Assembly (NCBI GenBank): GCA_000091205.1
Contig: AP006485.2
DNA: 64,000 nucleotides
Direction: 5' to 3' (one strand)
From: Cyanidioschyzon merolae
Taxonomy: Eukaryota
In this document: positions 2,114 to 64,000 of the stretch, piece by piece
Numbering within the stretch: the stretch's first letter is position 1
Layout of the letters: every line of letters starts with the position of its first letter
Made by a program: the position numbers and the translations under genes
Notes under the pieces: model-generated
What the model saw: only the letters and a program-made list of their open reading frames with translations
Database searches by the model: none
Told to the model about the DNA's origin: nothing

Positions 2114-2144
<31 letters not shown>

Positions 2145-37900: not shown

Positions 37901-39719
37901 CAGTTGCGAAAAGAGTGCCACTGTGGATGCTGTGGGTGTCTGGCGGAGCGGCTCGACGTGTTCGCGATCACTCAACTGAAAGCGCGCTACAGGTTGACGT
38001 TGTTCGAGCAGCAGCGCCTCCCCGATGCTTGCTGCAAGTTCACAACGACCATCCGCGGGGAAGCGAAAGAGCTCTTGGCGCGAGCGAGGCTCCAGGCACA
38101 CGATCTGTTCGTTGATTGTGATCAAGGCCGGAACCGGAAGCAGGTTTCGAAATTCCAGAACCGGTGCTAACCACACCTCCAGGCTGCCGTCTTCGTGGAT
38201 GTGTCGGGATACCCGGAGTACGCGGTTATCGCACCAGTGCACCATGTGAGCGACCGTTACCGCCTCGCCGTACAGTGCTCGCATCGCTGCTGCCTGCACT
38301 GAGAAGCTCTCACACCACACCGTAGCATCTGCGCTGGCAGGGTTCGCACCGGAGTCAGTCAGCGTCTCCTCAAAAGCGACTGCCAGTGCTCTAATATCGG
38401 CAAGGGCGCCAATGCGGATACTCTTCTGTGGCGGTAGCCGATGGAAAGTCTCCAGCACCAGCGACAAATCCCGTCCACTGCTACCTCTACCACCAACACT
38501 ACTACCACTACTACTACTACTACTACGAGTAGTGGTAGTGGTACGAGGCATACGACTGCTCGTCTGCCCTAGACAGCGCAGACGCAGCGTCGTATGCGCA
38601 CAGGCATTGTGTACGGTTATAGGCGCCTGAAGGCAGAAGTGCCAGCCCGTTCGGCATCGCGTCACTCGCCAGTGGAGTCGCTCCCACAGCAGCTGTGCTG
38701 AGCAAGGAGGTACGGTTGTGCACTGTTGCGCATCAAGTGGGTGCGCAGATGTCGCTGACAGCTGTGCGACTGTTCTAGCGTCGCCGCTTTTGCTACTGCT
38801 GGTACTGCTGCTTGCAGTTGACGTCACTGCTGCTGCTGACCGTGTCCCTGGCAAAGCTGCAGCGACGCTGGGTCGATTCCCAATGAGCGACCTTGCAGAA
38901 GTTTCTGTTGCTGAAGCCTCACTCGCGACGAGCGCGTCGCCAGCTCGAGTCCAAGAGAACCACGTAGGCGTATCGCCTTCGATGGAGAGCGCTCGAACGC
39001 CCAGTTGCAGCGTCTTCATAGAGGCACTCGAACTCGTGACCTGGGTCGAGCCCTGAGCTCTTGACTGGATCCGCCGGAGCGCGTTTGGTGCCCAGCTGGA
39101 TTGCACCGGAAGCACCGCATGCACCGTTCCCGCAGCGACACAGAATCCTGAAGCTCCAAGGCGTGCTGGATGCTCCTCGGGCGTTGTGCTCGTTGCTGGG
39201 CGCTCCGGAGCGCTTTTCTTGCCAGCTGCAGGCGCTGAAGGCATCTGGTGCACCGCATCTGGCCCGTGTGCTTTGTCACCGCTCTTCTGGTTGCCGGATG
39301 CCGGCATAAGCGCACCATTGTTGCTAGGGATGATGATCTCAAGGTCCGCATCCGTCTCATTGGAGAATCGATACGCTCGCTGGTACACTGTCGGCAGATG
39401 CGCTCGTCGACCGGTGAGATACTCCCAGAGCAGCGCGAGCTCGAGTGCATCCTGCTCGGAGCCTTGAATCCGAACAGGCTCCCGATGCAGCGGACTCAAC
39501 CATATCCGAAGCAAGCCAGAGGGTCGATGCTCATGCAGACGCAACTGCAGTCGAAACGGGTGCAACCGTGGCTCATACCGATCCTGTCCACCATCGTAGG
39601 CGTCGACGGCGAACGTGCACTGCGTCTGCAGCTCCTGGTATGTGTCAGTGACCTGATAAACCAAGGCGAGTTGGCTCATGGTCAGCGCCACCAGGGGGAG
39701 CACCCCACCGCTACTGCTA

Positions 39720-39753
<34 letters not shown>

Positions 39754-45361: not shown

Positions 45362-45439
45362 CGAATTGAGTTGGTGTCAAGCAAGTGATACGTTGCTCGA
45401 CGAGTAACAGAACCGGACGACGGCCACGCACCAAACGCC

Positions 45440-46050
45440 GTTCTGAAGCAAAACGTTGTCGCCGTCAGCGGTGGACAGTTGTGGCGAGAAACTCGCTATG
45501 GACAAGACGTCCCCAACTGACGTGCAGACGCCTCCCCGCCGGTTTGGACCGGCCACCCACAACTGATTCCAACTTTTTTTTTTAATATAGTTCCACTTTG
45601 AGCGGTTGTCCCTTAAAATTCTCTCTTGTCCACTCTGGAGGTCTTCTCTCCAGCACCGCACATCTCCTCATATTGATTGCTGCGTTCAGGTCTCGGTTCA
45701 CGAACTCCATACGTCCACTGCCTCTTGCTAAACTCATCATTGCGAGCAGTCCTGGCACTCGCGCCTTCTGTTCCACGACAGTCTTGTCACCTTCTTCTTC
45801 TGCTTGGTTCATTGCTGGTCTTCTCTCGATGGTCGACGAGAAGAGAAATTTTTCTATTTTCACCGGTACCTGGCAATGGCGGCCCTCCAGAATCCCAGAC
45901 TTCCGTCTTCACACCTCTCCCTCGGTGTTTTTCCTCAAATAAACGCAATTCGACCACGTCTGCTATCAACTCGCGAGAGAGAATTTGACTACACGCACCT
46001 GGGGGTATCACGCAATTGAGCTGAGAGATTATACCAAGCGAAAACACTCC
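45440..46050 (-). mobile_element. truncated remnant of the TnpB/Fanzor-like element family: 3'-terminal conserved segment plus the RuvC-III end of the ORF only
   Basis: 45440-45700 aligns at the nucleotide level to 47838-48100, 54631-54890 and 60670-60930. Track ORF 45582..45863 (-) reads ...[44 protein letters not shown], the RuvC-III tail. No RuvC-I region follows. It ends ~80 bp upstream of the VPS13-like start codon. Confidence 0.55.
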
Positions 46051-46431
46051 GACACGATCGATGCGCTATGACGTCAGATCATCCGCTGGAAACGACGACT
46101 ACATATGAGCGCGCGCTGTACGACGAGTCTACCATCATCAACAGCGGTAATATTCAGATCACTTTGGCGGTGTATCTGTGCATTGTGGCAGCTTTACAGT
46201 CCAAGGCCGCGCGTGAAAGCGTCTCTTGTGATCCTCGATCTGAGGCAACGTATGCGTCATGTGCATGAATCGAGCGGCGATTTCCATTCAAGGCTACTCC
46301 AAACCCTAATTCCAGCTTGCGATCATGAAAAGCCTCCGCAAAGTGTTCGCAAGCTCAAAGACTGTCGTTTCCGCTAAGATTCGGCTCGTGCACGGCTGAG
46401 TCGTCATCATTCTGAATCGTATTTTCGGCGG

Positions 46432-47640
46432 CTACCGCTCACGCTCAACTGATTCCAGCATTTCCGACACATATCGCCACACCGTGTTCGGATCCTGGTC
46501 GTGCGGGCAATGACCGACAGCTTTCAGAGCAACAAATCGATCCACATGTGGATTGCGTGCAAACAGCTCTCGTCCGAGGGCGAAAGGTTCCCACGGATCA
46601 CGCTCTCCCCAGAGGACCCAGATTGCGGGCGGATCTTTTCGAGCAGTTGCAGCCATCTGTGCAATGCTTTCGACGAGCTCCTCTGCCAGCGGGCCGCGAT
46701 CATACGACGTGAACGCTAGAAATACATCCAGAGCACCGGGGCGCCTGCTTGGGGCCCGAATCCGCTCTACGAGCTCGGTACTGATGATCTGGTCCGCCTC
46801 AGGGCCATCAACAGCGTAGGCTGAGCAGAGTAACCTGCGGAGCGTCGCTGGCCGAGATACCAGAGAGAAGAAAAACTTCGCCACGGGACGAAATCCCAAT
46901 ACGCGCAACGCTAATGGAGTCGTCCAGACGCGCAGACCCCGTCGTTTCTTATAGTGCAGCTGGCGAAGAGACGGATTCAGACACATAACTGCCCGAATAC
47001 GCGTGCCCTGCATACCAGGATGCTCTACTGACTGGCGCAGCATGTCGCAAGCAGCTTGAAGTGCGGCAACACAACCGATTGAATTTGCAACGAGAACAAC
47101 ATCACGCTGTTGCGAAATCCCGGTATCTGACGCGGTCACCACAACAGTATTGATGAAATGAAGGATCTGCTGTGCCCAGCTTTCAAACGTGTACGAAAAT
47201 GTCGGAGAGCCAACTTTGCCGTCGCCTTGCGTCGTGAACAGCGGTGGTGGCATATCAGCATCACCAAAGCCCAGCAAATCCAGCGCATACGCGTCGTAGC
47301 CCGCCTCCGAAATGATGTTGAGCATCTTCTGCCAGTGAAATGCCCCAGCACCGAAACCGTGAATGCATATCACAGCAGGCCTTGCCGGTGACGCCGGCGG
47401 AGCTGCAGGTTTCGCCCAGTACGTACAACGGAATCTTTCAAACAAGTAATCTTCTTGCCGAAAACCTGGCGGCAACGGTAGGAGCGGTTGAACACTCCTT
47501 AAACATTCCTCGAAAACACCACCTACATTCGTAGTGGGGTCAGCGCTCAAAGTAGAGTCGAAGTCACGACGGCCCGTTGCTCTCAGAGCGCTGTTCACCG
47601 AGTGCCCGTTTCCTTCATTTACGTCAGCCTTAACACCCAT
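46432..47640 (-). CDS. alpha/beta-hydrolase fold protein
   Basis: Track ORF 46432..48060 (542 aa). The hydrolase core reads AVICIHGFGAGAFHW...LVANSIGC...AVGHCPHDQDP. The start is placed at the internal ATG 47640 (MGVKAD...), because the upstream 140 codons read through the conserved end of the adjacent repeat element and recur verbatim at 54627..54860. Confidence 0.65.
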   Translation of the reverse strand: MGVKADVNEGNGHSVNSALRATGRRDFDSTLSADPTTNVGGVFEECLRSVQPLLPLPPGFRQEDYLFERFRCTYWAKPAAPPASPARPAVICIHGFGAGAFHWQKMLNIISEAGYDAYALDLLGFGDADMPPPLFTTQGDGKVGSPTFSYTFESWAQQILHFINTVVVTASDTGISQQRDVVLVANSIGCVAALQAACDMLRQSVEHPGMQGTRIRAVMCLNPSLRQLHYKKRRGLRVWTTPLALRVLGFRPVAKFFFSLVSRPATLRRLLCSAYAVDGPEADQIISTELVERIRAPSRRPGALDVFLAFTSYDRGPLAEELVESIAQMAATARKDPPAIWVLWGERDPWEPFALGRELFARNPHVDRFVALKAVGHCPHDQDPNTVWRYVSEMLESVERER

Positions 47641-47764
47641 AACGGCTCCAGTGCCTCCAGGCCGAGGGAGCTGACGCCTTCTAGCACTCAAGAGCGAGCG
47701 TCGCGGCCGTTCGTTACTTTTCGAGTGAAGCAGCACCGGTGCCAGGCGACAATGACCGAAGCGC

Positions 47765-50150
47765 TCACCCGTACAAACCTCTGAAACGTACCCTGGGTGG
47801 ACACTCGCACCAACACAAAACATCTTTCCAAAGACAAACGTTGCCCCCGGCCGTGTACAGTAGTGGCGAACGCGCCCTAGGCAAGGGGTCTCCAACTGAC
47901 GTGCAGACGCCTCCCCGTTTTTTTGGACCGGCCACCAACGTCTGCTTCCATTTTTTCTCATATAGATCGACTTTGAGAGGTTGTCCAATAAAATCCTCTT
48001 GTGTCCAGTCTGGAGGTCGTTTCTCCAGCACCGCACATCTCCGTATATTGATAGCGGCATGAAAATCTCGGTTCACGAACTCCATACATTTCGTGCCGTT
48101 GGGAGCTGTACTCACCAATACGAGTAACCCTTGAACTTTCGCCTTCCTTTCCAGTTGCTCCTCCGCCAGCGGTCCGTACTTTTGCAATTTCCTCAGCGCT
48201 CTTCTGGCACTTTTCCATCTCCACCCTCTGAAGCGTGCAGCCCAGTTCCTGGTATGTATAGGACGTCCGGAACTCATATACAGGTATCGTAACGAGACGC
48301 CGGGCGCACTCCTTGTACAGCTTCGTCGCTGGAGCTGGCGTAGTTCCTTTTCTGTTCTTCCAGTGCCTTGCTCCATACGCTTCTACGAGCTTCTGACGGT
48401 CATCCTCCTTGAGGGCGCTCAACTGATTGAAACAATTCGCAAACGCCCGCTGCTTCACACCGTATAGATTCATTCGCAGACGAGCCCACCGGGGCTTTCT
48501 ATACTCCTCCCACAGCGCATCCCAATGGGCAACACGAAATTCCATGAATTTCCGAAAAGCTTCACAGACCGCTCCGCGGCTCGTCGCCTCGCTCAAAGCT
48601 TCCAGGTGATGCTTTATTCCTGCATTCCACGTAACGATTATCATCCTTGCATTCACTACAACGGATTCTCGATAGTATCTCGCTCTCGAGAACCTCAGCA
48701 GACGCATGTCTTTCTGGCGTAAATTACCGTCCATGCCATCTTCCGCACGCTTCGGTGCTGCGATGGTGATGATATTCGTGTTCCCAGGATCCGCGCCAAC
48801 CACAATGTCTTTATCCTGCACTTCCTGTGTGGCAGGATCCGCCTCTTTCTTTCCTTGATGCTTCGTCGCGTCAACCATAAAGTCGTTATCCTGCACATTC
48901 TGTTCGGCAGGATCCGCCTCCTTCTGACCTTCATCCTTCACCGCGCCAACGACACGGTCGTTATCCTGCACTTTCTGCATCACAGGTTCCGCCTCTTTCT
49001 CTTTTTCATCCTTCACCGCGTCAGCGACAAAGTCGTCATCCTGCACCTCCTGTGTCGCAGGATCCGCTTCTTTGATTTTTTAATGCTTCGCAGAGGGCGA
49101 AGCGAAAGGCACAATCGGACGGTCCACTTTCAAGCGCCGATAGTGTACATACAAGGTTACTCCATCGGTCTCGATCAACGCAGTGAATACCTTTTGGCTT
49201 CTCACTTTGAGCCGTTTGAAATTGAAGATGTTCTTCAAGTACGTCGCCCGGTTTTCACCGGTGAAGTCATCCCTGCTAACAGTGAACACTGGACTGATCT
49301 CCTTCATGATGCCGTAAAACACGTCCGAATCGATATTCACGAAACGTGACTTGATGCTGCACATTGGAACCACGTTGAAGCGCTTACCCATTAGGAAAGC
49401 CTTCCGTCTCTCCTACTCTTCATTTGTCTTTTCGCTCAGGTTCATCTCCGCTTCGCGTTCGAGCTCCGGGTCCAAGAACACAGAATACCGTACGACGATG
49501 CGATAGTATCTCCCCTGATCCTTTTTCAACTCTGATATCTTTTCTGTTGGATTCACCAGCCCCAAGATTGCACGGCGCTCTTGTATAGCCGCACGGATCA
49601 CAGATGCTTCATTCGTGCTCCTGCGTGACGTCTTCTTGTCGACAAATTCGACCTCATCTTCATGCTTGCGATCTTTCGTTATGCCATTGATAGTCGCCTA
49701 TATTCATTTGAGAGAGCTGCCTGGGTAGAGTGCAAAAACGGCGCGTATCATGAAACGTTCGAGTTTCACGATCACGTGACTCTCCAGTTTCGTGATGTAC
49801 TTCGTCGCCCCTTATATGTAAACATTCGAATCACCCCTGTATGGAGTACTGTTGAAGCTGTAGAGGGGATGTTTTTCGTAAAGGCCATGCACTAGCACAT
49901 TTTCCCTCCGCGTTTCCGCTGTTCCAAGCATCAGGTATCGAATAAAGGTCTCGTCGAATAACTCGTCCAGAATCTCGACCGTTTCCATGTTCGCGACGTC
50001 TTCGTACATCTCCCTCGCCAAATGCATCAGTCTTGACGACGCCTTGAAAATACTCTTGGAGTACGAATCGAAACGTTTTTCGATAGCGTCTCGCAACTTT
50101 TCCCTGTACGGATCCTTGATGTGTCCAAGAAGAAAGATTTTCACCTCCAT
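47765..50150 (-). CDS. TnpB/Fanzor-like RuvC-nuclease ORF, copy A. It is interrupted into segments 49812..50150, 49413..49601, 49080..49391, 47958..49046 and 47765..48376; intact versus pseudogene status is unresolved.
   Basis: RuvC-I is [18 protein letters not shown] (cf. TnpB vGIDlG.kn.a). Further on are ...[20 protein letters not shown] (the TS + Cys region preceding the zinc finger), then [25 protein letters not shown], which is the canonical RuvC-III RDxNAAxNI. The N-terminal ~430 aa ([27 protein letters not shown]...) have no recognised domain. The track's 203-aa segment reads out of the element into flanking DNA, so the natural stop is probably near ...LYEKKW, as in copies C and D. Confidence 0.5.
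47838..48040 (-). ncRNA. candidate omega-RNA / right-end scaffold of Fanzor-like copy A (the conserved 3'-terminal non-coding segment)
   Basis: About 200 nt downstream of and overlapping the RuvC-III coding end. It is conserved at the nucleotide level in all four copies, including copies C and D where the protein frame has already terminated or shifted. It contains a conserved hairpin ctggag-gtcgttt-ctccag and a conserved gacgtgcagacgcctcccc core. The position, 3' of the TnpB-like ORF and abutting the element end, matches where omega-RNAs lie. Confidence 0.25.
48780..49075. repeat. 66-bp tandem repeat x4 inside the Fanzor-like ORF (copy A). It encodes reiterated (V/N)QDND(R/F/I)(V/M)V(G/D)A(V/T)K(D/H)(E/Q)GQKEADPA units ending in the RuvC-I motif.
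   Basis: On the plus strand the unit reads gtcgttatcctgcac(a/t)ttctg...aggatccgcctc(c/t)ttct...tcatccttcaccgcg.... The same array is present at ~55580..55875 in copy B. Confidence 0.7.
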
Positions 50151-51022
50151 CTCATTCTACAGTCATCTTTCCCGCCGCCTTCGACGTAGGGCCTCTCGCT
50201 TTCAGTTCTTCTTCTCTCCTGTTTCTTCTGGACTCGGCACTGCTTTTTGTTTGTCTCTAGCGGCCGGCGACCCCGGCCCTCCAGGAGCGTCGACTTGCTT
50301 TTTCATAGCTTTCCGTTTTTTAGTTTTTTCTTGAAAAACAACGCTCTGTGAACCCTTCTGTTATATACTGCGAAAAACACTTGACTAGACTTGTTTGAAG
50401 TTTCAAACAGAAACGAACTTAAAGCCTGTACTTGGCTACGACCTGAACGGAAATACAACTTTTTACAGATGAACAACACGCTACTGATCCCAATCGCGTT
50501 TCCCTTCAACGAAGGCATACGCATCGTGTCAGTTGATTCCCCGATCTCCCAGATGCGATTACCGAGCGCGATGCGTGCGCCTCGCGAGACACCACGCCGA
50601 TCGATGAAGGACACGTGCCTCAAGCCCATAGTGCAAAGAAACAGAGCTCGCTCGGGGGCACGCCTGCGCTATCGCTTTTGGCGCGAAACGCGAAATCGAA
50701 ACCGCGCCTGCAGGGATCGTCTCGAACCGTTTCTCCTTCGCCGTGATCATCGATTGCCGCGGATTCGAGGCATGGTGCGGGGGAATTTGAATCGCTCGTG
50801 GGCTCTGTCGTTGCCGCTGCTGGACGTAAATATTTTTTTAGAGTTGGTGTTGTTCAACGGACGGCTGGGAACGGGCTCTTTCTCGTTCACGACACTAAAT
50901 ATTTTCCATCAAAAGAAGTTTTATACAAAGGTTTCCAAAGTATAATATCAGGATTTGCTACGCTCATGGTATTTTTGGAGAGCAATATACGTAGAGGCCG
51001 CCCAGGAGGTCAAGGCTTTCGG

Positions 51023-51215
51023 ATGAAGCCTTCGCTATTTATTATTTGTTTCATACTTTGCAGTGTGTTCGCGTCTCTCGTACGGGCAGCGACTGTGACA
51101 CCTACACCGACTGCGACTGCGACACCGACTGCGACACCGACACCTACACCTACACCTACACCGACACCTCCATCGGCTACGACACCGACACCGACACCGA
51201 CACCTCCATCGGCTA

Positions 51216-51252
<37 letters not shown>

Positions 51253-51275
51253 TCCATCGGCTACGACTACGACTA

Positions 51276-51306
<31 letters not shown>

Positions 51307-53416
51307 TCCATCGGCTACGACTACGACTACGACACCGACTGCGACACCGACTGCGACACCGACTGCGACACCGACTGCGACACCGACTGCGACACCGACT
51401 GCGACACCGACTGCGACACCGACACCTACACCGACTGCGACACCGACTGCGACACCGACTGCGACACCGACTGCGACACCGACTGCGACACCGACTGCGA
51501 CACCGACTGCGACACCGACTGCGACACCGACTGCGACACCGACTGCGACACCGACACCGACACCGACTGCGACACCGACTGCGACTGCGACTGCGACTGC
51601 GACTGCGACTGCGACGGCGACTTCTACGGCAACTCCGACACCGATTGCGACGATGACTCCGACAATTACATCATCGCCAACGATTACTGTAACAGCGTCT
51701 CCAACGACAGTGACGATGACACCGACGATGACTCCAACTGCAACAACGTCACCAACAATCGTGCCGACGACGATTGCCACCTCGATTGCGATATCCGTTC
51801 AGAATCTTTCTCTTTGTTTGGCCGTGGCGACGGATTTGCAGAACGATCTCGAGGCTCGCTTCACGGGCCTGGTAGTGAATGTCAGCGTGACTGATAACTG
51901 CGACACGGTCTTCGGTTCGGGCACATCAAGGCGCCTCGCCACCACATTAGACAAGAGCAATCCTCGTCTGGAACGAGCATTGGTGCGCACGTCGGGCGGC
52001 AGTGTTGTGACCTATGTGATTAAGATCTCAGGAGACACATCCCTCGCCAGTGATGCGCAAAGTGTGCTTCAAACTTTCACCGACCAGCTTTCTACAATTC
52101 TACCCTCTGGTGCGACACTTGCTATTATAACCCCGACACCGAGTGCAACGCCAACACCAGTTTGCACGAGTGAAATCTGCGGTTCTCCGGGCCAGTACAC
52201 AAACCGGGACGCTTGCGAGCAAGTCGGGTGCTGCTTTAACTCCCAGACGAACGCGTGCACCCTGAAGAGCGTCTCAGCGGCCTGCAGCGCTGTTCCAGTG
52301 ACGCAGCGCGTCCCCTGCGGCTGGAGCTACATCTACCCCGACGAGTGCACTGCGATACCGGGATGCTGCTGGCAGCCAACGGCGAACGGCATCCTGGCAC
52401 CCTGGTGCTACTACGACATCAACCATGCACCGCAGGCCTCTGTAGCGCTGCAGGAGGTGCAGGCACCGGTTCCCCTCTGCCCGTCACCGGGAGCGCAGCG
52501 CCAGCCGTGCGGCAACGCGGGCATCAACCAGTTTACGTGCTATGCCCAGGGCTGCTGCTACGACTCGCAGGCGCAGAACCAGTGGGTGCAGAACGGCAAG
52601 CAGCAGAGCGACTTTGCGTCGAACCCGTACTGCTTCCAGCCCGAGAAGACGTGCGCGGTGGGCGAGTTTGAGCGCCAGCCGTGCACGAACGCGGTGAATC
52701 AGAACCAGCAGCTGAACAATAACATCAACAACAACCAGTTTGTGCGTCTGCTGAACACGCTTCTGTACGGAGAGCAGCACGGGACGCAGCGCACGAGCTA
52801 CTCGCCGCAGCAGTGTCTGGAGGCTGGTTGCTGCCTGGGGCTCAGCAACGAGTGCTTCCAGCCGATGACCGAGTACGTGTGCCAGACCTACGGGTATGTG
52901 TCGAACTCGCTGAGCGGCACGACCGGCAACGTATCGAACTCGAGCTATATTCCGTGTGGCCCGGAGTGCTGCAACGCCGAGACGCAGAACTGCACGTACA
53001 ACCCGTTCAGCAACAACAACAACCAGCAGCAGCAGCAGCAGCAGCAATTGCAACAACTGCAGCAACAACAGGTGCTGCTGCCGTCATTCTGTGTGTGCAA
53101 GGACCCTACGAAGCAGTGCGGGACGTACCTGATCCCTTCGGATAACCTTGTGAACAAGGTGCGTTGCTGCCGCGCTGACGAGGAGTGCATCAACAACCAA
53201 TGTGTGGTGATTAGTCCAACACCGACTCCGAGTCCCGTGGCTGTGACAGCGACACCCTCTGCGACGGTGTCTGCAACAGTCTCTGCGACAGCTTCTGCGA
53301 CGGTGTCTGCGAGTGCATCAACGAGTGCATCAGCGAGTGCTTCAGTTTCAGCCTCTGTGTCGACGTCTGCGAGCGCCTCGGAATCAGCGACATCTTCAGC
53401 TCCACCGACTGCGTGA
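51023..53416 (+). CDS. secreted mucin-like protein: signal peptide, long Thr/Pro/Ala tandem-repeat region, then 3-4 trefoil (P-type)-like Cys-rich modules and a C-terminal Ser/Ala/Thr-rich tail
   Basis: Track ORF 50798..53416. The start is placed at the internal ATG 51023 ([29 protein letters not shown]...), which gives a classical signal peptide. Cys modules include [45 protein letters not shown], matching the trefoil C-x9-R-x2-CG...C...GCC(F/W)...PWC(F/Y) pattern. The other modules are [32 protein letters not shown] and [31 protein letters not shown]. Confidence 0.6.
51100..51660. repeat. coding tandem repeat: 12-nt (accgactgcgac) and 6-nt (acaccg) periodic array encoding (TPTA)n/(TP)n
   Basis: Direct periodicity; for example gacaccgactgcgacaccgactgcgacaccgactgcgac runs for >250 nt. 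Confidence 0.85.
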
Positions 53417-54564
53417 GCGAACGTTTCAACTGTTAATTTGCCCACAGTCTAGATCACGTCTATGCTGATCCTCTGTTGCGACAATATTCCACTCATGTTC
53501 ACAAGACCCGAGAGTACGAATGAACGAATGCGTTAATGTGGATATTTGTGCGCGGAGTGTCATCTGAGGTCCTCTTCGGGAACTTACATTCAGAGATCTG
53601 ATGAACGGAAAGAATGGACCAGAATTTGCTTTTGGAACGTAAAGGAATGATTACCTATGCCTATGAGCTTGCCCCCGATGATAGCCTTGGTGGTAATGGC
53701 GGTATCTTGGTACCCTTTCTTCTCTTTGTAGTCGGAATACGGTTTCCGAGTTGCATGTAGCGAGTATGTCTGCAGTAGAGCGTCTGGAACTGTTTTTTTA
53801 GTTTCGTTGTACTTGAGCACATTCTAGTCCTGAGGAGAGGTTCTGGAGCAAGTTTGACTCGATCCGTACAACCGCAAATTTCACCAAAATACGATTCCTC
53901 TTGAGGAAAAGCTGGTATTCGTGACGCCTGCATACGGGCTCCGGCTCCGCTTGGCACGAATGGAAGCAGGGCCGCCAGCCTCACAGCGCACTTATAGCTC
54001 TAACATTGAAAGTGCTTATAGCTTGTTCTGTCGGTCGAGGCATCCTCTCGATATATTCACCACTGTTGCCTACCGTTGCTCGTAGGCTACGTCCATAAAA
54101 CCGTCTGAAGTGTTGTGCTGATTTCCGGATTATGTTTATGTCTTGTACACTAGAAAAAAACGAGAACGAAGTGGTGGTAAGCCGTGAAGACGTAGATGCG
54201 CAGTTACCGTTACTCGGTCCAGAGGCACATCATGCCAGGCAGTCACATCCTGAGACGAGCTGTACGCTATGTAAGCATTACCACAGCACCTTGAGCACAG
54301 CTGGAGGCATTCTAGAAGCGGCCAGTATCGATTCTAAACAATTGATCTTGTTCTATATCATTGCAAACAAATTGGTAAACGGATCCGTTGCTAATAAATG
54401 GACACAGGGCCCTCGGAAGATAGATAAACGACAAGGCAGCGGATGATGTATCGAATACAGAAGAACTCGAGTTGCCCATTTTCCACATTTTCTGTCACAT
54501 CAGTCCTGTTACAGCCATGGCAGCAATATCTTCACGAAAAGCATCAACTATTACCACATATACT

Positions 54565-56950
54565 CTAGGTACTCTTCGCAAATACGTTCTGAATAAGCGA
54601 CGTGACGCGCCCGCACCGAACGCCTCTCAAAAGACAAACGTTGCCCCCGGCCGTGTACAGTAGTGGCGAACGCGCCCTAGGCAAGGGGTCTCCAACTGAC
54701 GTGCAGACGCCTCCCCGTTTTTTTGGACCGGCCACCAACGTCTGCTTCCATTTTTTCTCATATAGTTCAACTTTGAGAGGTTGTCCAACAAAATCCTCTT
54801 GTGTCCAGTCTGGAGGTCGTTTCTCCAGCACCGCACATCTCCGTATATTGATAGCGGCATGAAAATCTCGGTTCACGAACTCCATACATTTCGTGCCGTT
54901 GGGAGCTGTACTCACCAATACGAGTAACCCTTGAACTTTCGCCTTCCTTTCCAGTTGCTCCTCCGCCAGCGGTCCGTACTTTTGCAATTTCCTCAGCGCT
55001 CTTCTGGCACTTTTCCATCTCCACCCTCTGAAGCGTGCAGCCCAGTTCCTGGTATGTATAGGACGTCCGGAACTCATACACAGGTATCGTAACGAGACGC
55101 CGGGCGCACTCCTTGTGCAGCTTCGTCGCTGGAGCTGGCGTAGTTCCTTTTCTGTTCTTCCAGCGCCCTGCTCCATACGCTTCTACGAGCTTCTGACGGT
55201 CATCCTCCTTGAGGGCGCTCAACTGATTGAAACAATTCGCAAACGCCCGCTGCTTCACACCGTATAGATTCATTCGCAGACGAGCCCACCGGGGCTTTCT
55301 ATACTCCTCCCACAGCGCATCCCAATGGGCAACACGAAATTCCATGAATTTCCGAAAAGCTTCATAAGACCGCTCCGCGGCTCGTCGCCTCGCTCAAAGC
55401 TTCCAGGTGATGCTTTATTCCTGCATTCCACGTAACGATTATCATCCTTGCATTCACTACAACGGATTCTCGATAGTATCTCGCTCTCGAGAACCTCAGC
55501 AGACGCATGTCTTTCTGGCGTAAATTACCGTCCATGCCATCTTCCGCACGCTTCGGTGCTGCGATGGTGATGATATTCGTGTTCCCAGGATCCGCGCCAA
55601 CCACAATGTCTTTATCCTGCACTTCCTGTGTGGCAGGATCCGCCTCTTTCTTTCCTTGATGCTTCGTCGCGTCAACCATAAAGTCGTTATCCTGCACATT
55701 CTGTTCGGCAGGATCCGCCTCCTTCTGACCTTCATCCTTCACCGCGCCAACGACACGGTCGTTATCCTGCACTTTCTGCATCACAGGTTCCGCCTCTTTC
55801 TCTTTTTCATCCTTCACCGCGTCAGCGACAAAGTCGTCATCCTGCACCTCCTGTGTCGCAGGATCCGCTTCTTTGATTTTTTAATGCTTCGCAGAGGGCG
55901 AAGCGAAAGGCACAATCGGACGGTCCACTTTCAAGCGCCGATAGTGTACATACAAGGTTACTCCATCGGTCTCGATCAACGCAGTGAATACCTTTTGGCT
56001 TCTCACTTTGAGCCGTTTGAAATTGAAGATGTTCTTCAAGTACGTCGCCCGGTTTTCACCGGTGAAGTCATCCCTGCTAACAGTGAACACTGGACTGATC
56101 TCCTTCATGATGCCGTAAAACACGTCCGAATCGATATTCACGAAACGTGACTTGATGCTGCACATTGGAACCACGTTGAAGCGCTTACCCATTAGGACAG
56201 CCTTCCGTCTCTCCCAATCTTCTTTTTTTCTTCACTCAGCTTCATCTCCGCATTTCGCTCGAGTTCTCGGTCGAGAAACATGAAATAGCGCAGAATAAGA
56301 CGATAGTATCTTTCCTTATCTTTTTTCAACTCTGATGTCTTGTCTGTTGGATTCGCCGGCCCCAAGATTGCACGGTGCTCTTGTATAACCGAATGGATTA
56401 CAGAAGTATCATTCGTGCTGTCGTTAAACGCCTTCGTGTCGACGAATTCGACTTCACCTTCATGCTTGCGATCGTTCTTGATGCCGTTGATAATCTCCCA
56501 TATTCCTTTGCGAGAGATACCCGGGTACAGCGCAAACACGGCGCGTATCATGAAACGTTCGAGTTTCATTGTCAAATGGTTCGTCAGGTTCGTGAGGTTC
56601 TTCATCTCCCCATAGTCGTAAATACTCCGGTCCCCCTTGTATCGAGTACCCTCGAAGCCGTAAAAGGGATGTTTTTCGTGGAGGGCATGAACCCGCTCGT
56701 TTTCCTCCCGCGCTTCCACTGTTCCAAGCATCAGGTATCGAATAAAGGTCTCGTCGAATAACTCGTCCAGAATCTCGACCGTTTCCATGTACGTCACGTT
56801 TTCGTACATCTCCCTCGCCAAATGCATCAGTCTTGACGACGCCTTGAAAATACCCATGGAGTACGAATCGAAACGTTTTTCGATAGCGTCTCGCAACTTT
56901 TCCCTGTAAGGATGCTTGATATGTTTAAGAAGACAGGCTTTCACCATCAT
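54565..56950 (-). CDS. TnpB/Fanzor-like RuvC-nuclease ORF, copy B. It is interrupted into segments 56192..56950, 55881..56192, 55362..55847, 54767..55345 and 54565..55176, with one extra break relative to copy A at ~55350.
   Basis: The same RuvC-I, TS/zinc-finger and RuvC-III ([15 protein letters not shown]) motifs as copy A. The N-terminal 252-aa segment is continuous here, whereas it is broken in copy A. Confidence 0.5.
54631..54835 (-). ncRNA. candidate omega-RNA / right-end scaffold of copy B
   Basis: Identical to the copy-A 3'-terminal segment except for a few substitutions (tagttcaac vs tagatcgac). See 47838..48040. Confidence 0.25.
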
Positions 56951-57270
56951 CTCGTCGTACAGTCGTCTTTCTTGCCGCCTTCGACCTAGGGCCTCCCCCG
57001 TCGGTCCTTCTTCTCTCCTGTTTCTTCTGGACTAGGCACTGTTTTTTGTTTTTATTTCTGGCAGCAGGCGACCCTGGACCTACGGAATCGTCGACTTGCT
57101 TTTTCATAGCTTTTCTTTTCATTTTTTTTGTGTGAAAAAGAACGCTCCTTGAACCCTTCTATTATATACTGCGAGAAATCAATTGAATATGTTTACTTGA
57201 GGGTTGAGACACAATCGAACTGGAAACTATGATTTGTTACGACTTCCACGCAAATACAGCTTGCCCGTTA
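54631..57270 (-). mobile_element. TnpB/Fanzor-like element, copy B (~2.6 kb)
   Basis: It is near-identical to copy A over 54631-56200. Track ORFs 55881..56192 (-) and 55656..56150 (+) are identical to their copy-A counterparts. The 5' region (56200-57270) is ~80% identical to copy A. Confidence 0.6.
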
Positions 57271-58418
57271 GAACATCAAGAAAACGTGTCGTCACGGTCG
57301 CGTTTCTCTTCAAAGGCGACAGATGCGTCGTGTCTCGTAAGTGCCATACTTGGAGATGCACGTATCAAGCGCGCCATACAGGAAAAAGGACAGTGACCTA
57401 CGATTTACAAGAAACGATATAAAATTTTTTCCCGCTCTACGATAAGCGTTTAAGGGGAAACAGATCGCCGTATTATCGGAAGCTTATGTTCGAGGCGGTA
57501 GGTCCCGCGAGCCGGTCGAGTCTACCGGGCTAGAGCTCGGTATCCCTCTTAAGTGGCTGCTGCCGCTGCTGCTGCTGCTGCTGCAAGACCTGCGCAGCTC
57601 GTTCACAACGCATTTTATCCTGAGACTATGCACAGGATGCTGCGTTGGGCCTCGCCCTGGTCGCAGTGGAACCCTAGTATAGCGCTTCGCGCTGCCGTAG
57701 GTAGTGGGTCTGTCTGCCCATTTTGCATGTTTCCAGAATGACAAATAGCCCTGATTCCGTTTCAGGTGAATCATCCTCCCAGAGGACGCCCTTATTGGTA
57801 TGGCAAAGCCGTTCTGTCTCTGTACAGCACCTGCTTGAGCGGTATAAGCGCAACAGCGGGTGCTCACAACAGGCTCGGCGCTCGATAGAACATACGAAAC
57901 GACCAGTGTATCAGAGAGGAAGTATGGGTAATGGGACTTGAGGACAGGTGCACTATGACAGTGATATCCCCGGAAGCCATTATCCGTTCCGAATTCTGGG
58001 ATCCATGGGCAATGTAAACGTTTTTTCATCAAAAAGAAAAAACGCCCCGAGGCGGACTCGTCATCGAGACGCACATCCCTCTGGATCGAATCTCCGGAAG
58101 GCGCTTCTGGGCGATCGCAAAAGCCCTCAAGTGCATCTTTGTATTCTCAACGGATAGCATGCTTTATTCGGAGCGCTCAGTCTCGAGCGTTCCCTCTAAC
58201 TTTAAGCAATAGCTTCGTAGATCAGACAGCTGTGTTGTCAAAGAGCACTGTACCTAGTTTTGGCGAGGTCTATAGTGCTGGAGAACAAAACGATCACGGG
58301 TTTGTAGCGATCTCGGCACCAGTGCTAGAAACAACCCTGCACTGGAGCTCGTGCGATCTAAAACCTGTAGTCGGACTTTTTAGAAGATCTGTCTGGCAAG
58401 GAAACAAATCGTGGAACT

Positions 58419-59495
58419 GTGCTCTTTGGAATGACGTCGGGGATCGACGAGGCAGCGGCTGAGCTTCAGGGAAGTCTCTTTGGGGAGGTCTCGCCTGCGA
58501 TCGACTCGCCGGGTGCGGCGCTTGCACGTTCGTACCCCGTCCGCATCACCGTTGTCGGAGCTGGTGACGTTGGCGTTGCTTGCGCCTATAATATTTTGAC
58601 CCGAGATATTTGTAGTGAGCTGGTACTGGTGGACGTTCTCAAGGACAAACTCAAAGGTCAAGTTATGGACTTGCAGCATGGAGGTGCGTTCTACAGCACC
58701 CGCATCCGGGCTGCCGAGTCCTACGAGGATACAGCACATTCGGCAGTATGTATTATAACGGCAGGTGTGCGTCAGCGGCCCGGAGAAAGTCGTCTTGAGC
58801 TCATGGATCGCAATGCCGCATTGTTCAAAGGCATTATTCCGCCCCTGGTGCAGTATTCGCCGAACACAATCCTGTTGATTGTGAGTAACCCCGTTGATCT
58901 ATTGACACATCTAGCGTGGCAGATGAGTGGCTTGCCTCGCGAACGTGTGATTGGCTCAGGGACATATTTGGACTCTTCGCGTTTCCGCACACTTCTGGCG
59001 CAGCGGCTGGGCATCGATACCGCTTCCGTCCAGGCCATGGTACTGGGCGAGCACGGAGACTCCTCGTTCGTGTACCGGAGTGGTATTACGGTTGGTGGCG
59101 TGCCGTTGCGAACATGCTTCGAGCGCATGACCGACGCTGCGAGCGCGTCCACAGCATTCTATGATCTGGTGAAAGGTGTCCATCAGCAAGTTGTAGCCGC
59201 GGCTTACGAGGTCATTAAGCTGAAAGGCTACACCAACTGGGCCATTGGCAGCGCTGTTGGAAGTATCGTTACAACGATTGTGCATGATCGGCGCAAAGTG
59301 CTGCCAATAACGACGCATGCGGGCTCGATGCGAGGCCTCGAGTCGGCGGATGTATTCTTGTCGTTGCCTTGTGTGCTAGGTCGGAATGGTGTCGTTGAAG
59401 TACTACAAATACTGCCGTTCATGGAAAGTGACGAGAAAGAAGACCTCCAATCCAGTATAGAGGCACTCCAGAGCACGCCGAAGAAAGCATCTTGA
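58419..59495 (+). CDS. ldh: L-lactate dehydrogenase (LDH/MDH superfamily, LDH-type active site)
   Basis: Track ORF of 358 aa. The Rossmann motif is VRITVVGAGDVGVACAY. The substrate loop is ICIITAGVRQRPGESRLEL. The catalytic His is in MVLGEHGDSS, the LDH signature GEHGDS. A ~35-aa N-terminal extension means the true start could be an internal Met. Confidence 0.8.
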   Translation: MLFGMTSGIDEAAAELQGSLFGEVSPAIDSPGAALARSYPVRITVVGAGDVGVACAYNILTRDICSELVLVDVLKDKLKGQVMDLQHGGAFYSTRIRAAESYEDTAHSAVCIITAGVRQRPGESRLELMDRNAALFKGIIPPLVQYSPNTILLIVSNPVDLLTHLAWQMSGLPRERVIGSGTYLDSSRFRTLLAQRLGIDTASVQAMVLGEHGDSSFVYRSGITVGGVPLRTCFERMTDAASASTAFYDLVKGVHQQVVAAAYEVIKLKGYTNWAIGSAVGSIVTTIVHDRRKVLPITTHAGSMRGLESADVFLSLPCVLGRNGVVEVLQILPFMESDEKEDLQSSIEALQSTPKKAS

Positions 59496-60669
59496 GCATG
59501 TTGCCTGCGCATGGTAACGCGTTGGATGCGGATCGTTTACAGGGACGTTAATCAAATGCCTCGTCGAAGTGCGGGCTCTGCACAAGCGTGCTCGGTCTGT
59601 ACTCAAAATAAGCGGATGGACAAGGAGGACTGAACTATGCTGGATACCTATGCCAAACTGGTAGGTCTTGGCACCGTAGAAAAGGTGTGGAGGGGAGCGT
59701 CCGTAGCCATCTCGGCGAGCTTGTTTCAAATGGACAGCATTGCTGAAGGACCAGGTGGCACCAGAATTGCAGCTGCAGAGTAGCGTTCGCCTACTATCAT
59801 CATTGAAACCTGCTAGTCGTGTCATGGATACCGGACGTGCTGGAGTTCGCATCCGCAACAGCGAACAAGGATCAAATCAACTGACTCAAAATTCTCCAAA
59901 GCGATGCGTGGATGAAAGCTGGCGAAAGTTGCGGGTCTGGTACGGCATAACGTACGCTTACCCGGATGCCGATATGTATCGCGCCTGACCCGAGATACCC
60001 TGGTTCAGGTCAACCATTCTAAACCGCAGGATAAAAGTATGCCATGATTTAACGTTCACTGATGTTGGCTGGACGGCATCGCAACGCTCCACGAACCTGG
60101 GCGCGGCGCCGAAGGCTTAGTTTCCGAGTATGACCGTGACAGACTTTGCTCTATGCGTACGGATCTGGAAAACACGAGTCGAAAGTGTGCATCAGCACGC
60201 ATGGGCGACGAATAAAACCCTTAAAGCGACGTGCGAACAGTGACCTAACGATGCAAGTGGAACGAACCGAATACCCTGAGGTAGGTATGATGGCACAGCT
60301 TCTGCCTTGAGAGCAGCTGCACAAGCGCTTCAGTGCGGTAAAGCCGAAATCGTGCCGAAACGTCCGAGTCGCGTCAGCGCTTCTAGTGAACAGGAATGTG
60401 CCTCCAGCTTCTCTGACGTTCCTCTCGCGTCCCAGCAATTCTGGTACAAAGTTTCGCTCTATGCAGCACAGGCGCTGATGCAGCGCTCCTTCGGAAGCCC
60501 TGCCTTCCGCAAACTTGCACCGAGACGTTCCGTACGCAGCTATCGTGGTTATGCTTCAAAACCGGAACGGTATTGCAGTGTCTTGGAAGCGTCGGCTAGA
60601 GCTTCTGAGACCGAAACGTCTCGTAAGACCACCGCACCCGACGACAACAAACATCTTTCGAAACAAAAA

Positions 60670-63070
60670 CGTTGCTGCCGGCAGTAGACAGTACTGGCGA
60701 GAAACTCGCCCTAGACAAGAAGTCGCCAACTGACGTGCAGACGCCTCCCCGTCTTTTCCGCCCGGCCACCTACTGTGGGTACCATTTGTTCTTATATAGT
60801 TCCAGTTTAAGAGGTTGTCCAACAATGGACTCTCGTGTCACCGCTGGGAGCTTTTTGTCTATTCCCGCACATCTCCGTAGATTGATTGCAGCGTTAAAGA
60901 CTCGGTTCGCGAACTCCATACGTTTCTTGCGGTTGACAGTCGTACTTACTAATGCAAGTAGTCCACGAGCTTCTCCCCTCCTTTCCATTTCCTCTCCCGT
61001 CAGCTGTCCCTTACTTTTTTATATCATCAGGACTCCACTGGCACTTTTCCATCTCCATCTTCTGAAGAGTACATCCCAACTCGTGGTGTGTATACGATGT
61101 TCGGAACTCACCCACAGGTACCGTAGCGAGACCCAGTGCGCACTCCTTGCCCATTCCTGCCGTTGGAGCTGGTGGAGTCCCTTTTTTTCGGAGCCCAGCT
61201 CCCTACACCATATGTAACAACGAGCCTCTGACTTGATCCTATTTCAAGGCGTTCAATCGATTGAAAAAGCTCGCGAATGCGTGATGCTTACCACGGCACA
61301 GATTCATACGCAAACGTGCCCAGCGGTGCTTTGTATACTCGCCCTACAGCGCCACGGAATGAGCAACCCCAACTTCCAAAAATTTCAGAAAAGCTTGAAT
61401 GTCCGCTCATCGGCTCGTCACCACGCTCAAAGCCTCCAGGTGATCCTTCATTCCTACATTCCACGTAACGATCTTCTTCCTTGCATTCATTATACCGGAT
61501 TCTCGATAGTATCTCTCTCTCTCGAAAACCTCAGCAGAAGCATATGTTTGTGGCGTAAGGTGCCGTCAGTGCAATCTTCCCTTCGCTTGTGAACAGCGAT
61601 GGTTATGAGATTCGTGCTCCAGGGACTAAGGCCGACGCCAAAGTGGTTTTCATGGGGCTTATACGTTCCATAGCCCGTCAACCTGTGTTCGTTCTTCGGC
61701 AAGGGCCGTAAAGAAAACGGGATAGGACGAGCTGCCTTCAACCGCTGATGGTGTACACATATGTGCGCCACATCGAGATCGATTGTTCCAGTGAATAACC
61801 TTTTTTTGGCCGGTTCGGGACACTTGAAATCGAAGATATTCTTCTCGTAGGCGTCCCGATCTTCACCGGAGACCTATTTGTTGATTACATCGAGCTATGG
61901 ATAGATCTCTATCCTGAAGATGCAAAAGGACTATGGGGTCAATATACACAAAATGTGACTTGAACGCGCATAACCGACCGACATTGAAGCGCATCTGGAG
62001 AAGACTTCAATGTCGTTTCTCGCACTCGTCTTTTTTTCCACACTCAGCTCCATGCCGACCCTGCGATCGAGGTCTCGGACCGAAAACATGAAGCAGGGCA
62101 GGATAAGAGAGTAACAACTCTCTCCGTCGTTTCTCATATCCGAGAGTTTTCTCTTGGGTTGACATGACCCAAGACCGAACGATGTTTTAGAATAGTCGCG
62201 CGAATTACAGAAGCATCATTCATTATCCTGCGTGATGTCCTCTTGTCGACGAGTCTGATCTCCTGTTCATGCTGGCGATCGTTCTTCATACCATCGATGA
62301 TTGCAAGCATCCCTTCGCGAAATAGGCCATGGTACAGCACAAAGGCGACGCGTATCATGAAACAATCGAGGTTTGCCATTTTATGGTTCCTCACATTCAT
62401 AAGGCACCTCTTTGCCCTGTATTCGTAAATGTCTGCGTCACCCCTGTGTTCAGCACGGAAGACGAGGAATTTGGCGTAATTTTTGAGGAAGGCATGCACT
62501 CGCTCACTTATCCCCGATGTTTTCCCATTAAAAACAATCAGGTAGTTGATGAAAGTCTTTTGGAAAAATTTTTCCGGAAACATCACTTTCGCGATAAGCG
62601 TTACGTCCCGATGCAGGTCGCTGTCCAAATGCCAACGTCCTAAAGAGAAGATACAAACACACCCGGCGTACGAACCGACACGGTTTCTGATAGCGTCCCG
62701 CAACAATCAGTCGTACGGATCATTGATATGTTGGAGAAGATAAGATTCCACCACCATCTTGTCGTACAGAAGTCACAATTTCAGCCTTCGATGTAAGGCC
62801 CTCCCATGTTGCTTCTTCTTCTGTTCCTGACCCTCTTCGCTAAGCACTACGTCTCGTTTCTTTCTGACATCCGGCAGCACCGGCCACCCCAAACCCACAA
62901 CCTCCAAATACATAAGTCTAATTTTTGTTTTGGGAGAAAAACTCATTGGACGCTTCTGCTTTGAACGGCGAAAATAAGTTGAATACCCTTACTTAATGAT
63001 TGAAACGCCATTGGAGCCAAAACTATACTTTGCTACGATTCGATCAGAAATACAAGTGGCCCCGATAGAG
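60670..63070 (-). mobile_element. diverged member of the same TnpB/Fanzor-like element family, copy C (~2.4 kb, degenerate)
   Basis: Track ORF 60770..60988 (-) reads ...RMEFANRVFNAAINLRRCAG...GQPLKLELYKNKW, a RuvC-III tail with the catalytic D replaced. ORF 61490..61771 (-) contains GLSPWSTNLITIAVHKRREDCTDGTLRHKHMLLLRFSRERD, aligning to the RuvC-I region [44 protein letters not shown] 62134..62706 (-) aligns to the N-terminal domain at ~40% identity. The 3'-terminal ~200 nt (60670-60900) are ~75% identical to copies A and B. Confidence 0.5.
60770..62706 (-). pseudogene. degenerate TnpB/Fanzor-like ORF of copy C (multiple frame breaks; catalytic motifs eroded)
   Basis: See the copy C mobile_element feature. 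Confidence 0.45.
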
Positions 63071-64000
63071 CAGTCGCTCCAGAAGAGGTCATTACCGCGT
63101 TTCTATTGATCGGCGAGACGCACGTAGTGTGACGTGACGGCCAGATTTCGCGATGCGTTACCAGGACGCACGATATAGAAAATGCCAAAAAATTGACAAT
63201 ATCCAAAAAACGGGGTACCAAGTACTAACGCCACCTACTGTAGACGTTAAAAGGAGGAAGTCTTTGCGTATGGTCAAGCAGTGACATATAGGCGGAGGGT
63301 CGGCAAGCAGCGAGACTCTACCAACCTCTAATACCGGTTGACCATACAGTTGCGAGTGATGTGACACACCCTAGCATCCCATCCGAAAAAGAACAGATTC
63401 TGGAACAAGGAGCGGATATATTGCGTCTAAGCGTGACCTAGATTGCGGTAGACTAATGGTATAGCGCTTTACGCTATCGCAGGCAAAAGATCTGCAAGAA
63501 CAGCTTGAAGGCTCCCAAGAAAATAAATTTCCCTGATCCCATGTTGCATGAACCAAGACCCTTCCAGAGCGCTCAGTGGTAGGCCAGAGCTGTTCTGTTT
63601 GAAGAGTGCAACTGCAACGAAGAAAGAGAGATTACGGCGGGTGCTCAGAGCAGGTAGGCGGCGCAGGAGAGAAAGTCTGATACGATCAGTACAGCCGAGA
63701 TGAAGTAAATGCGACGGAAGGGAAAAAAACTGGAAAGCGTGATGGACGATTTTCCGAAACCAGTGTCGATCCAGGAATTTCGCCGGTCTAGCCAGTGAGC
63801 AAGTTCCGCCAGACCAAAAAAAGCATAGCGCCGGAGGTAATTCCCTAATGGCTCTGGTATGCTAAATGAAAAAAAAACATATGCATAGGAGCTCAGACGG
63901 TACCGCCGAAGGAAAATCCCTAACGAGTCCGGAATGGTAGACGTCAAAATCACAGACGCTTTCGCGCTGGGATCATCGCGTTAATGGTGGGAATGGGGGG

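Follow-up and report, generated by a model that had tools for sequence, protein, structure and literature searches.

The right end of chromosome 3 of Cyanidioschyzon merolae 10D carries four repeats that are almost certainly old, inactivated insertions of CMe-1A, a non-autonomous element of ~3.2 kb that lacks terminal inverted repeats (TIRs) and has a Fanzor1 gene as its sole gene. The window analysed here, 64,000 nucleotides in length, represents this chromosome end, and the cluster of elements falls within the last ~18.5 kb of the right arm (3R), in its subtelomere. An initial annotation of the stretch had proposed a group of TnpB/Fanzor-like elements and left open whether the family had been described before. 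In fact, the window repeats are an already known element: it was classed as Fanzor1 when that family was defined in 2013 (Bao & Jurka 2013, Mob DNA 4:12, PMC3627910), and it is very probably the repeat reported in 2007 (Nozaki et al. 2007, PMC1955436).

Identity and extents of the CMe-1A copies

CMe-1 is the sole Fanzor1 family listed for C. merolae, and its carrier, CMe-1A, is present in ~150 copies, each ~80% identical to a TIR-less consensus of 3,169 bp; target-site duplications were left undetermined, and some copies were described as intact (Bao & Jurka 2013). According to the same study, the CMe-1 protein comprises 734 amino acids encoded by a single exon, the 5' 635 bp of the element are 95% identical to a separate repeat, TE-N2_CMe, and a Fanzor1 gene is also found in white spot syndrome virus (WSSV) and other large DNA viruses. 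The 2007 report concerned a 3.2-kb "WSV486-like" interspersed repeat with 253 copies that makes up ~5% of the genome (Nozaki et al. 2007). Judged by size, abundance and the Fanzor1 gene of WSSV rather than by a sequence comparison, CMe-1A is very probably this repeat, and the similarity to WSSV noted in 2007 would be explained because the virus carries a Fanzor1 gene.

Copy extents were determined by self-blastn of the window combined with blastn using the published CMe-1A consensus. Exactly four copies were found, all on the minus strand, with nucleotide similarity along the consensus, and the self-comparison detected nothing similar in 1-45000. The published CMe-1 protein likewise aligns along all copies, which are designated D, A, B and C in the order of their positions:

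45436-45908, minus strand: copy D; consensus 2833-3169 corresponds to 45775-45436 at 80% identity, with protein-level similarity to ~45908
47824-50570, minus strand: copy A; consensus 648-3166 at 81-86% identity, the core without the 5' TE-N2_CMe module
54621-58030, minus strand: copy B; consensus 2-3169 at 81-87% identity, full length
60655-63778, minus strand: copy C; consensus 37-3166 at 72.6% identity, full length and the most decayed
~57385-58030 (B) and ~63180-63778 (C), minus strand: TE-N2_CMe-like 5' module of ~635 bp, missing from A

The proposed layout of four same-strand copies with one host gene between neighbours was borne out. As for the boundaries first assigned, the 3' ends were accurate to within ~15 bp, while the 5' ends fell short by ~100 bp (A), 760 bp (B) and 710 bp (C), and remnant D, put at ~0.6 kb, measures at most 0.47 kb. 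Copy C had been taken for a separate lineage; the consensus search identifies it as a diverged member of CMe-1A and not as a separate family. Copy D is a 3'-terminal remnant that retains the last ~90 codons, including RuvC-III, and the 3' non-coding tail; its segment 45585-45908 matches the hidden Markov model (HMM) of the family with an E-value of 3.6e-14, and tblastn covers amino acids 643-734. Copy B has the best-preserved N-terminal open reading frame (ORF; 56195-57031).

Overall, the window copies correspond to CMe-1A in that the consensus is covered over its full length at 73-86% identity, with a single ORF, no TIRs and the optional 5' 635-bp TE-N2_CMe module. They are more decayed than the intact copies of the 2013 paper, with nothing categorically different. 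The 5' module is lacking in about half of the related copies in metagenomes: among JGI metagenome relatives both forms occur, with 27 alignments beginning at consensus 0-100 and 35 at 600-700. CMe-1A thus appears to be made of two parts, a Fanzor core of ~2.5 kb and a 5' module that is optional. Within this module in copy B, an ORF of 196 codons (57484-58074) is probably spurious.

The CMe-1 protein as a Fanzor1 protein

That the window elements belong to Fanzor1 is supported by both sequence and fold. The wider family was collected by scanning 1.84 billion cluster representatives in full with HMMER and a 12-sequence profile; 2,079 of them matched at E<=1e-3, and 326 related stretches were found in JGI metagenome contigs. 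A 99-sequence family alignment was then converted into a profile and searched against PDB sequences. It included P0001, a homologue of 752 amino acids encoded by one uninterrupted ORF and 63% identical to the protein reconstructed from the window (661 amino acids). This profile matched PpFz (1.4e-23), SpuFz (1.1e-16) and GtFz (6.8e-11), with alignments that bring the motifs GxDPG, DEFRTS and NRD into register and reach into the N-terminal half (profile positions 143-450). Across the 99 sequences, the RuvC-I aspartate (D484) and the glutamate of DEFRT (E656) are invariant, and the RuvC-III aspartate (D725) is nearly so.

Fanzor1 proteins share the layout WED-REC-RuvC-TNB. An AlphaFold2 model of P0001, based on the 99-sequence alignment, reached a mean predicted local distance difference test score (pLDDT) of 83.2 and a predicted template-modelling score (pTM) of 0.82, with disorder confined to a region of 25-amino-acid repeats (an earlier prediction from a shallow 35-sequence alignment, with a pLDDT of 37.5, was not used). 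In a Foldseek search of the PDB with this model, the top seven hits were all SpuFz, PpFz or GtFz (E 2e-17 to 5e-14), aligned over their full length with target-normalised TM-scores of 0.49-0.72, and Cas12 proteins appeared only at E>=0.01. These matches support the Fanzor/TnpB fold (WED, REC, a split RuvC and TNB) for this model, which is of a homologue and not of a window copy. Both the profile and the Foldseek alignments place the N-terminal ~430 amino acids, initially said to match nothing, alongside the N-terminal part of solved Fanzor1 proteins. The structure prediction suggested at that stage, when run on P0001, hence returned a Fanzor1 fold, and the assignment to a eukaryotic Fanzor1 type rather than a bacterial IS605 insertion agrees with the published classification (PMC3627910), the PDB profile matches and the seven leading Foldseek hits.

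On the other hand, general domain models did not recognise the family. Neither the ORF fragments, nor the 661-residue reconstruction, nor the intact homologues gave a TnpB-type match at threshold in Pfam or NCBIfam. The best Pfam model was Cas12f1-like_TNB (PF07282), which stayed below threshold both for P0001 (E-value 0.23) and for two distant relatives (6e-4 to 2e-3); the only precomputed Pfam tag on homologues was a weak DUF8286. The search for OrfB_IS605 and OrfB_Zn_ribbon that had been proposed as a check therefore failed, and only Fanzor-specific evidence rescues the call. Against PDB sequences, phmmer with the reconstructed protein and the 12-sequence profile each returned nothing relevant, and a second, word-indexed homologue search with the alignment as query yielded close Cyanidiales relatives only. 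An assignment to a bacterial IS200/IS605 or IS607 TnpB was not supported by any threshold match in Pfam or NCBIfam either, and no transposase ORF is present in or beside any window copy.

The catalytic motifs and the adjoining repeat arrays lie at the following positions:

48780-48797 (A) and 55581-55598 (B), minus strand: GADPGN (RuvC-I)
48261-48281 (A), 55061-55081 (B) and 61095-61115 (C), minus strand: EFRTS
48047-48079 (A), 54847-54879 (B) and 45672-45704 (D), minus strand: FVNRD(F/L)xAAIN (RuvC-III)
48791-49090 (A), minus strand: array of ~four 75-bp tandem repeat units, directly upstream of RuvC-I
55592-55891 (B), minus strand: array of ~four 75-bp tandem repeat units

Copies A and B retain the RuvC triad in order, namely D in GxDxG, E in DEFxTS and D in RDxNAAxNI. 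In copy C, both catalytic aspartates are replaced (GVGLSP; FANRVFNAAIN), and in copy D, RuvC-III is the only motif kept, reading FVNRDLNAAIN at 45672-45704. Of the three TnpB-defining motifs initially listed, the two RuvC motifs hence stand for A and B, and the "TS-Cys zinc finger" does not: between RuvC-II and RuvC-III there are TS and two isolated cysteines, without CxxC pairs or a C4 finger, and the family consensus lacks such pairs too.

The 75-bp unit encodes 25 amino acids rich in acidic residues (Asp/Glu) and lysine. It occurs once in the consensus and four to five times in homologues such as P0001 and P0013, and the array in the P0001 model is predicted to be disordered (residues 384-469, pLDDT <50). 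Relative to the CMe-1A consensus, copies A and B thus hold three additional units, amounting to a 225-bp insertion.

Among characterised systems, the closest are the solved Fanzor1 proteins SpuFz1 from Spizellomyces punctatus (8GKH, 9CEU-9CEZ), PpFz from Parasitella parasitica (9CF0-3) and GtFz from Guillardia theta (9CER-T). The overall fold and the order of RuvC motifs are alike, whereas sequence identity is only 12-16%, the CxxC...CxxC zinc-finger ligands between RuvC-II and RuvC-III are missing from the CMe-1 clade, and the clade has a disordered array of 25-amino-acid repeats before RuvC-I. With TnpB (IS200/IS605, IS607) and Cas12, the CMe-1 protein shares a distant RuvC core, the D...E...D triad and the RDxNAAxNI signature; the fold matches to Cas12 and Cas12f structures are weak (Foldseek E 0.01-0.3). 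Unlike bacterial TnpB, it has no TnpA partner, is about twice the size and resides in a eukaryotic nuclear genome. What the present analysis adds, at the level of a predicted structure, is confirmation of the CMe-1 clade as Fanzor1 by fold, despite the lack of a canonical zinc finger and of a Pfam TnpB match. It is conceivable, though unlikely, that the clade represents a zinc-finger-less Fanzor1 lineage with altered biochemistry.

Inactivation, probable gene conversion and the 3' ends

All four copies are pseudogenes: none has an intact ORF and none is able to make the Fanzor1 protein. To compile the lesions, each copy was aligned to the consensus and read in the consensus frame. Copy A has seven in-frame stops, all in the 5' third, and two frameshifts in the 3' part; copy B has six frameshifting indels; copy C has nine stops and eight frameshifts. 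A and B share a TAA in the repeat region at a position where homologues have glutamate (SAKH*KIKE, the asterisk denoting the stop, against TKHEEKKE). The positions of the breaks vary among copies, such that each of them is read through by another copy or by the consensus. Assembly error is an unlikely source of these lesions, because the host genes of the window are unbroken, including an ORF of 3,483 codons.

Could the copies nevertheless be live Fanzor genes, their five ORF segments being spliced exons or pieces joined by programmed frameshifting? The segments are collinear and jointly span the whole protein. In A, B and C, the reading frame breaks near consensus 2802-2815 at an A-run (GCAAAAGTA / ATAAAAAAGTAA), which on the surface looks like a slippery site with a stop behind it. 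However, when compared with the consensus and with uninterrupted homologues such as P0001, the breaks prove to be indels of 1-2 bp or stops of a single codon; A has stops at sites that are open in B, B has indels at sites that A reads in frame, and copy D is in frame through the 2802 region. Besides, C. merolae is nearly intronless, with introns in 0.5% of genes (PMC1955436), and the ratio of nonsynonymous to synonymous substitution rates (dN/dS) is ~1 in the tract shared by A and B. We therefore regard live genes as extremely unlikely. The five segments, initially considered as possible exons, are mutational fragments of one exon, as shown by the indel and stop inventory against the single-exon consensus.

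The near-identity of A and B over their 3' part, estimated at ~99% from the outset, proved to be 98-100% across 1.6 kb:

47840-49422, minus strand: gene-conversion tract of copy A, 98-100% identical to B 54640-56223, covering the WED/RuvC half
54640-56223, minus strand: partner tract in copy B

Identity remains at this level from 49422/56223 down to ~47825/54625, with a sharp step at the upstream boundary, beyond which it amounts to 70-85% except for a 200-bp patch of ~95%, and with a second drop in the last ~20 nt. The two tracts have in common the TAA stop, two indels (+1 at consensus 2802 and -1 at consensus 3036) and the three extra 75-bp repeat units. Over 434 codons, dN/dS within the tract is 1.0 at a dS of 0.007; comparisons of diverged copies with one another, or of a copy with the consensus, gave 0.41-0.64 at a dS of 0.31-0.72. 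The latter values indicate purifying selection for part of the time, in once-active lineages, and neutral decay thereafter. Non-allelic gene conversion involving a copy that was dead beforehand is the best explanation of the A/B mosaic, in preference to recent transposition; the source must have been dead already, because the identical tract holds the same stop and frameshifts.

The high A/B identity across 1.6 kb is also what recent transposition of an active copy, from A to B or from B to A, would produce, and the family would then still be mobile at this chromosome end. Yet identity falls to 70-85% in the 5' kilobase and drops in the last ~20 nt as well, the 5' TE-N2 module is present in B and not in A, the identical tract carries the same stop and frameshifts, and the mosaic pattern is typical of gene conversion. 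Recent transposition is accordingly very unlikely, and of the two options first offered for the A/B identity, "very recent activity or gene conversion", the shared lesions and the dN/dS of ~1 leave the second. We attach almost no probability to another reading, in which the repeats derive from a large DNA virus that integrated in fragments, as in the "WSV486-like" interpretation of 2007. This idea draws on a weak BLASTX similarity to the WSSV protein WSV486 (Nozaki et al. 2007) and on the presence of Fanzor1 genes in WSSV and other large DNA viruses (PMC3627910), yet the repeat occurs in hundreds of dispersed copies whose ends are defined, no further viral genes lie nearby, and the similarity is accounted for by the Fanzor1 gene that both carry.

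If the four repeats are dead CMe-1A insertions, as we consider almost certain, the element behind them can be outlined as follows. An intact copy would encode, in a single-exon ORF, a protein of ~734 amino acids with the fold of solved Fanzor1 proteins, a basic N-terminal tail and a D...E...D RuvC site. By analogy with Fanzor1 proteins that have been solved or assayed, the CMe-1 protein may bind an omegaRNA produced by transcription of the element's 3' end and may cut DNA that matches the sequence flanking this end; repair of such double-strand breaks could then help the element to be retained or to spread. On this reading, A and B became alike across 1.6 kb of their 3' part through non-allelic gene conversion that followed their inactivation, C and D are older, independent insertions or remnants, and the cluster reflects accumulation and survival of repeats in the subtelomere, not a functional array.

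The 3' ends were inspected for traces of such an RNA, and the relevant features are:

45426-45435 (D), 47814-47823 (A), 54611-54620 (B) and 60645-60654 (C): 3' flanks with a TTYGKTG-like sequence
54619-54643, minus strand: subterminal 3' hairpin of copy B, AACGUUUGUC-UUUU-GAGAGGCGUU, which ends 2-4 nt before conservation stops

The 3' non-coding tail of ~60 nt is conserved at ~81%, after which conservation falls to background. An exceptional conservation of the 3' end was considered and rejected, as identity to the consensus is 86-90% across the RuvC half and 81% in the last 70 nt. At all four window copies and at most metagenome copies, conservation extends ~8 nt beyond the published 3' terminus of CMe-1A and stops in the TTYGKTG-like sequence; either the true terminus lies ~8 nt further out than published, or this sequence is a preferred insertion site. 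Folds of 250 nt at the 3' end gave z-scores of -1.6 and -2.3, and Rfam contained no relevant RNA family match in 45000-64000. A hairpin of 9-12 bp equivalent to that of copy B is present in most of 60 copies, in two versions (ACGUUUUUC...GAAAGGCGU and CGUCGUUCGA...UCGAACGGCG), with a median z-score of -2.1. It could be the last stem of an omegaRNA or an end-recognition hairpin as in single-stranded DNA transposons. Replitrons, considered for a link through the terminal hairpin, were not found in red algae (PMC10288648).

Several observations weigh against the overall interpretation. The canonical C4 zinc finger of TnpB and Fanzor proteins is missing in the CMe-1 clade, the Pfam TnpB models stay below threshold, and nuclease competence of intact CMe-1 copies is an assumption made by analogy. 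How CMe-1A would be mobilised is likewise not apparent from its description, which reports no transposase, no TIRs and no determined target-site duplications (PMC3627910). A consensus fold of 60 distinct 3' ends by RNAalifold reached only -4.1 kcal/mol with 0 compensatory pairs. Finally, gene conversion and recent partial duplication are not strictly separable from one genome.

A different role for the dead copies also deserves mention. Their 3' ends might still be transcribed as guide RNAs and be used in trans by an intact Fanzor1 from elsewhere in the genome, the adjacent host sequence serving as the guide portion. Two of the 3' ends do abut the 5' ends of host genes, with D 75 bp from the start of CMC182C and A ~180 bp from that of a hydrolase gene. 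We consider this scenario very unlikely; if it held, RNA-guided breaks and gene conversion would concentrate at the dead copies, which could explain the A/B homogenisation, or the copies would regulate neighbouring genes.

Subtelomeric setting and significance

The chromosomal assignment follows from exact protein matches of CMC182C, the alpha/beta hydrolase (XP_005535384) and L-lactate dehydrogenase (LDH; XP_005535386) to genes on chromosome 3 of C. merolae 10D. The window ends with ...GTTAATGGTGGGAATGGGGGG, where the C. merolae telomere repeat AATGGGGGG begins at 63983-64000 (AATGGTGGGAATGGGGGG), ~200 bp from the 5' end of copy C. In the 3R subtelomere, the trefoil-factor gene and the LDH gene have been placed inside a homologous element "L" common to 11R (PMC1955436), and subtelomeres in C. 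merolae are reported to be enriched in H3K27me3, a mark also present on half of annotated repeats (PMC5405695). A single host gene (hydrolase, trefoil protein or LDH) separates each consecutive pair of copies:

34910-45361, minus strand: CMC182C, with its ATG at 45361; copy D ends 75 bp upstream of this ATG
46432-47640, minus strand: alpha/beta hydrolase, between copies D and A
~51023-53416, plus strand: gene for a Thr/Pro-rich trefoil protein, between copies A and B
58431-59495, plus strand: LDH, between copies B and C

If 253 copies in 16.5 Mb are assumed (PMC1955436), a stretch of 18.4 kb should contain 0.28 copies, and the Poisson probability of at least four is ~2e-4 per window, or ~0.2 windows genome-wide; the shared orientation contributes a further factor of 1/8. 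The cluster is thus denser than random, yet unremarkable for a subtelomere.

The RefSeq model of the hydrolase (XP_005535384, 542 amino acids; 46432-48060, minus strand) begins inside CMe-1A copy A: the first ~80 codons (48060-47824) come from the 3' end of that copy, read in another frame. Metagenome orthologues in the same 90% cluster are mostly 402 amino acids long, which equals the window ORF from the ATG at 47640 (MGVKADV...). The first 140 amino acids of the 542-residue model are probably not part of the real protein.

The trefoil-domain gene is mucin-like and subtelomeric, with an array of 12/18-bp tandem repeats at 51090-51621 (plus strand) that encodes Thr-Pro-Ala repeats, (TP/TA)n, in ~44 units; its exact product was absent from the protein collection searched. 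At least three C. merolae LDH proteins, from chromosomes of 481,791, 852,849 and 422,616 bp, fall into one 90%-identity cluster, consistent with LDH belonging to duplicated subtelomeric blocks. A search for the 11R copy of the block through LDH paralogues returned only short LDH-bearing metagenome contigs (<=3.2 kb), one possible cause of their shortness being assembly breaks at flanking repeats.

Besides the four CMe-1A copies, the window contains a heavily degraded Fanzor1-like relic of a different, older lineage at 26819-28966 (minus strand), in the intergenic region after a PDI-like gene (24734-26320). It matches the family HMM collinearly, with profile positions 6-115 at 28544-28966 (E 1.3e-7), followed by 255-282, 320-339, 431-461, 504-556 ("TPAPSKATYDESRNRFYTIPVDDFMT") and 567-618 ("YRDSNASINIW"), and is detected by tblastn with the homologue P0172 (E 1e-13). 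The CMe-1A nucleotide consensus did not detect it.

In summary, the identification of these repeats matters little in itself, since the repeat was already catalogued and classified. What is added here are the exact boundaries and the lesion inventory of the four 3R copies, evidence for conversion between A and B after inactivation, a correction of the hydrolase gene model and a fifth, much older Fanzor1 relic. Being tractable, nearly intron-free and repeat-poor, C. merolae and its intact CMe-1 copies, rather than the four studied here, could suit investigations into the role of a Fanzor protein in a transposase-less element.

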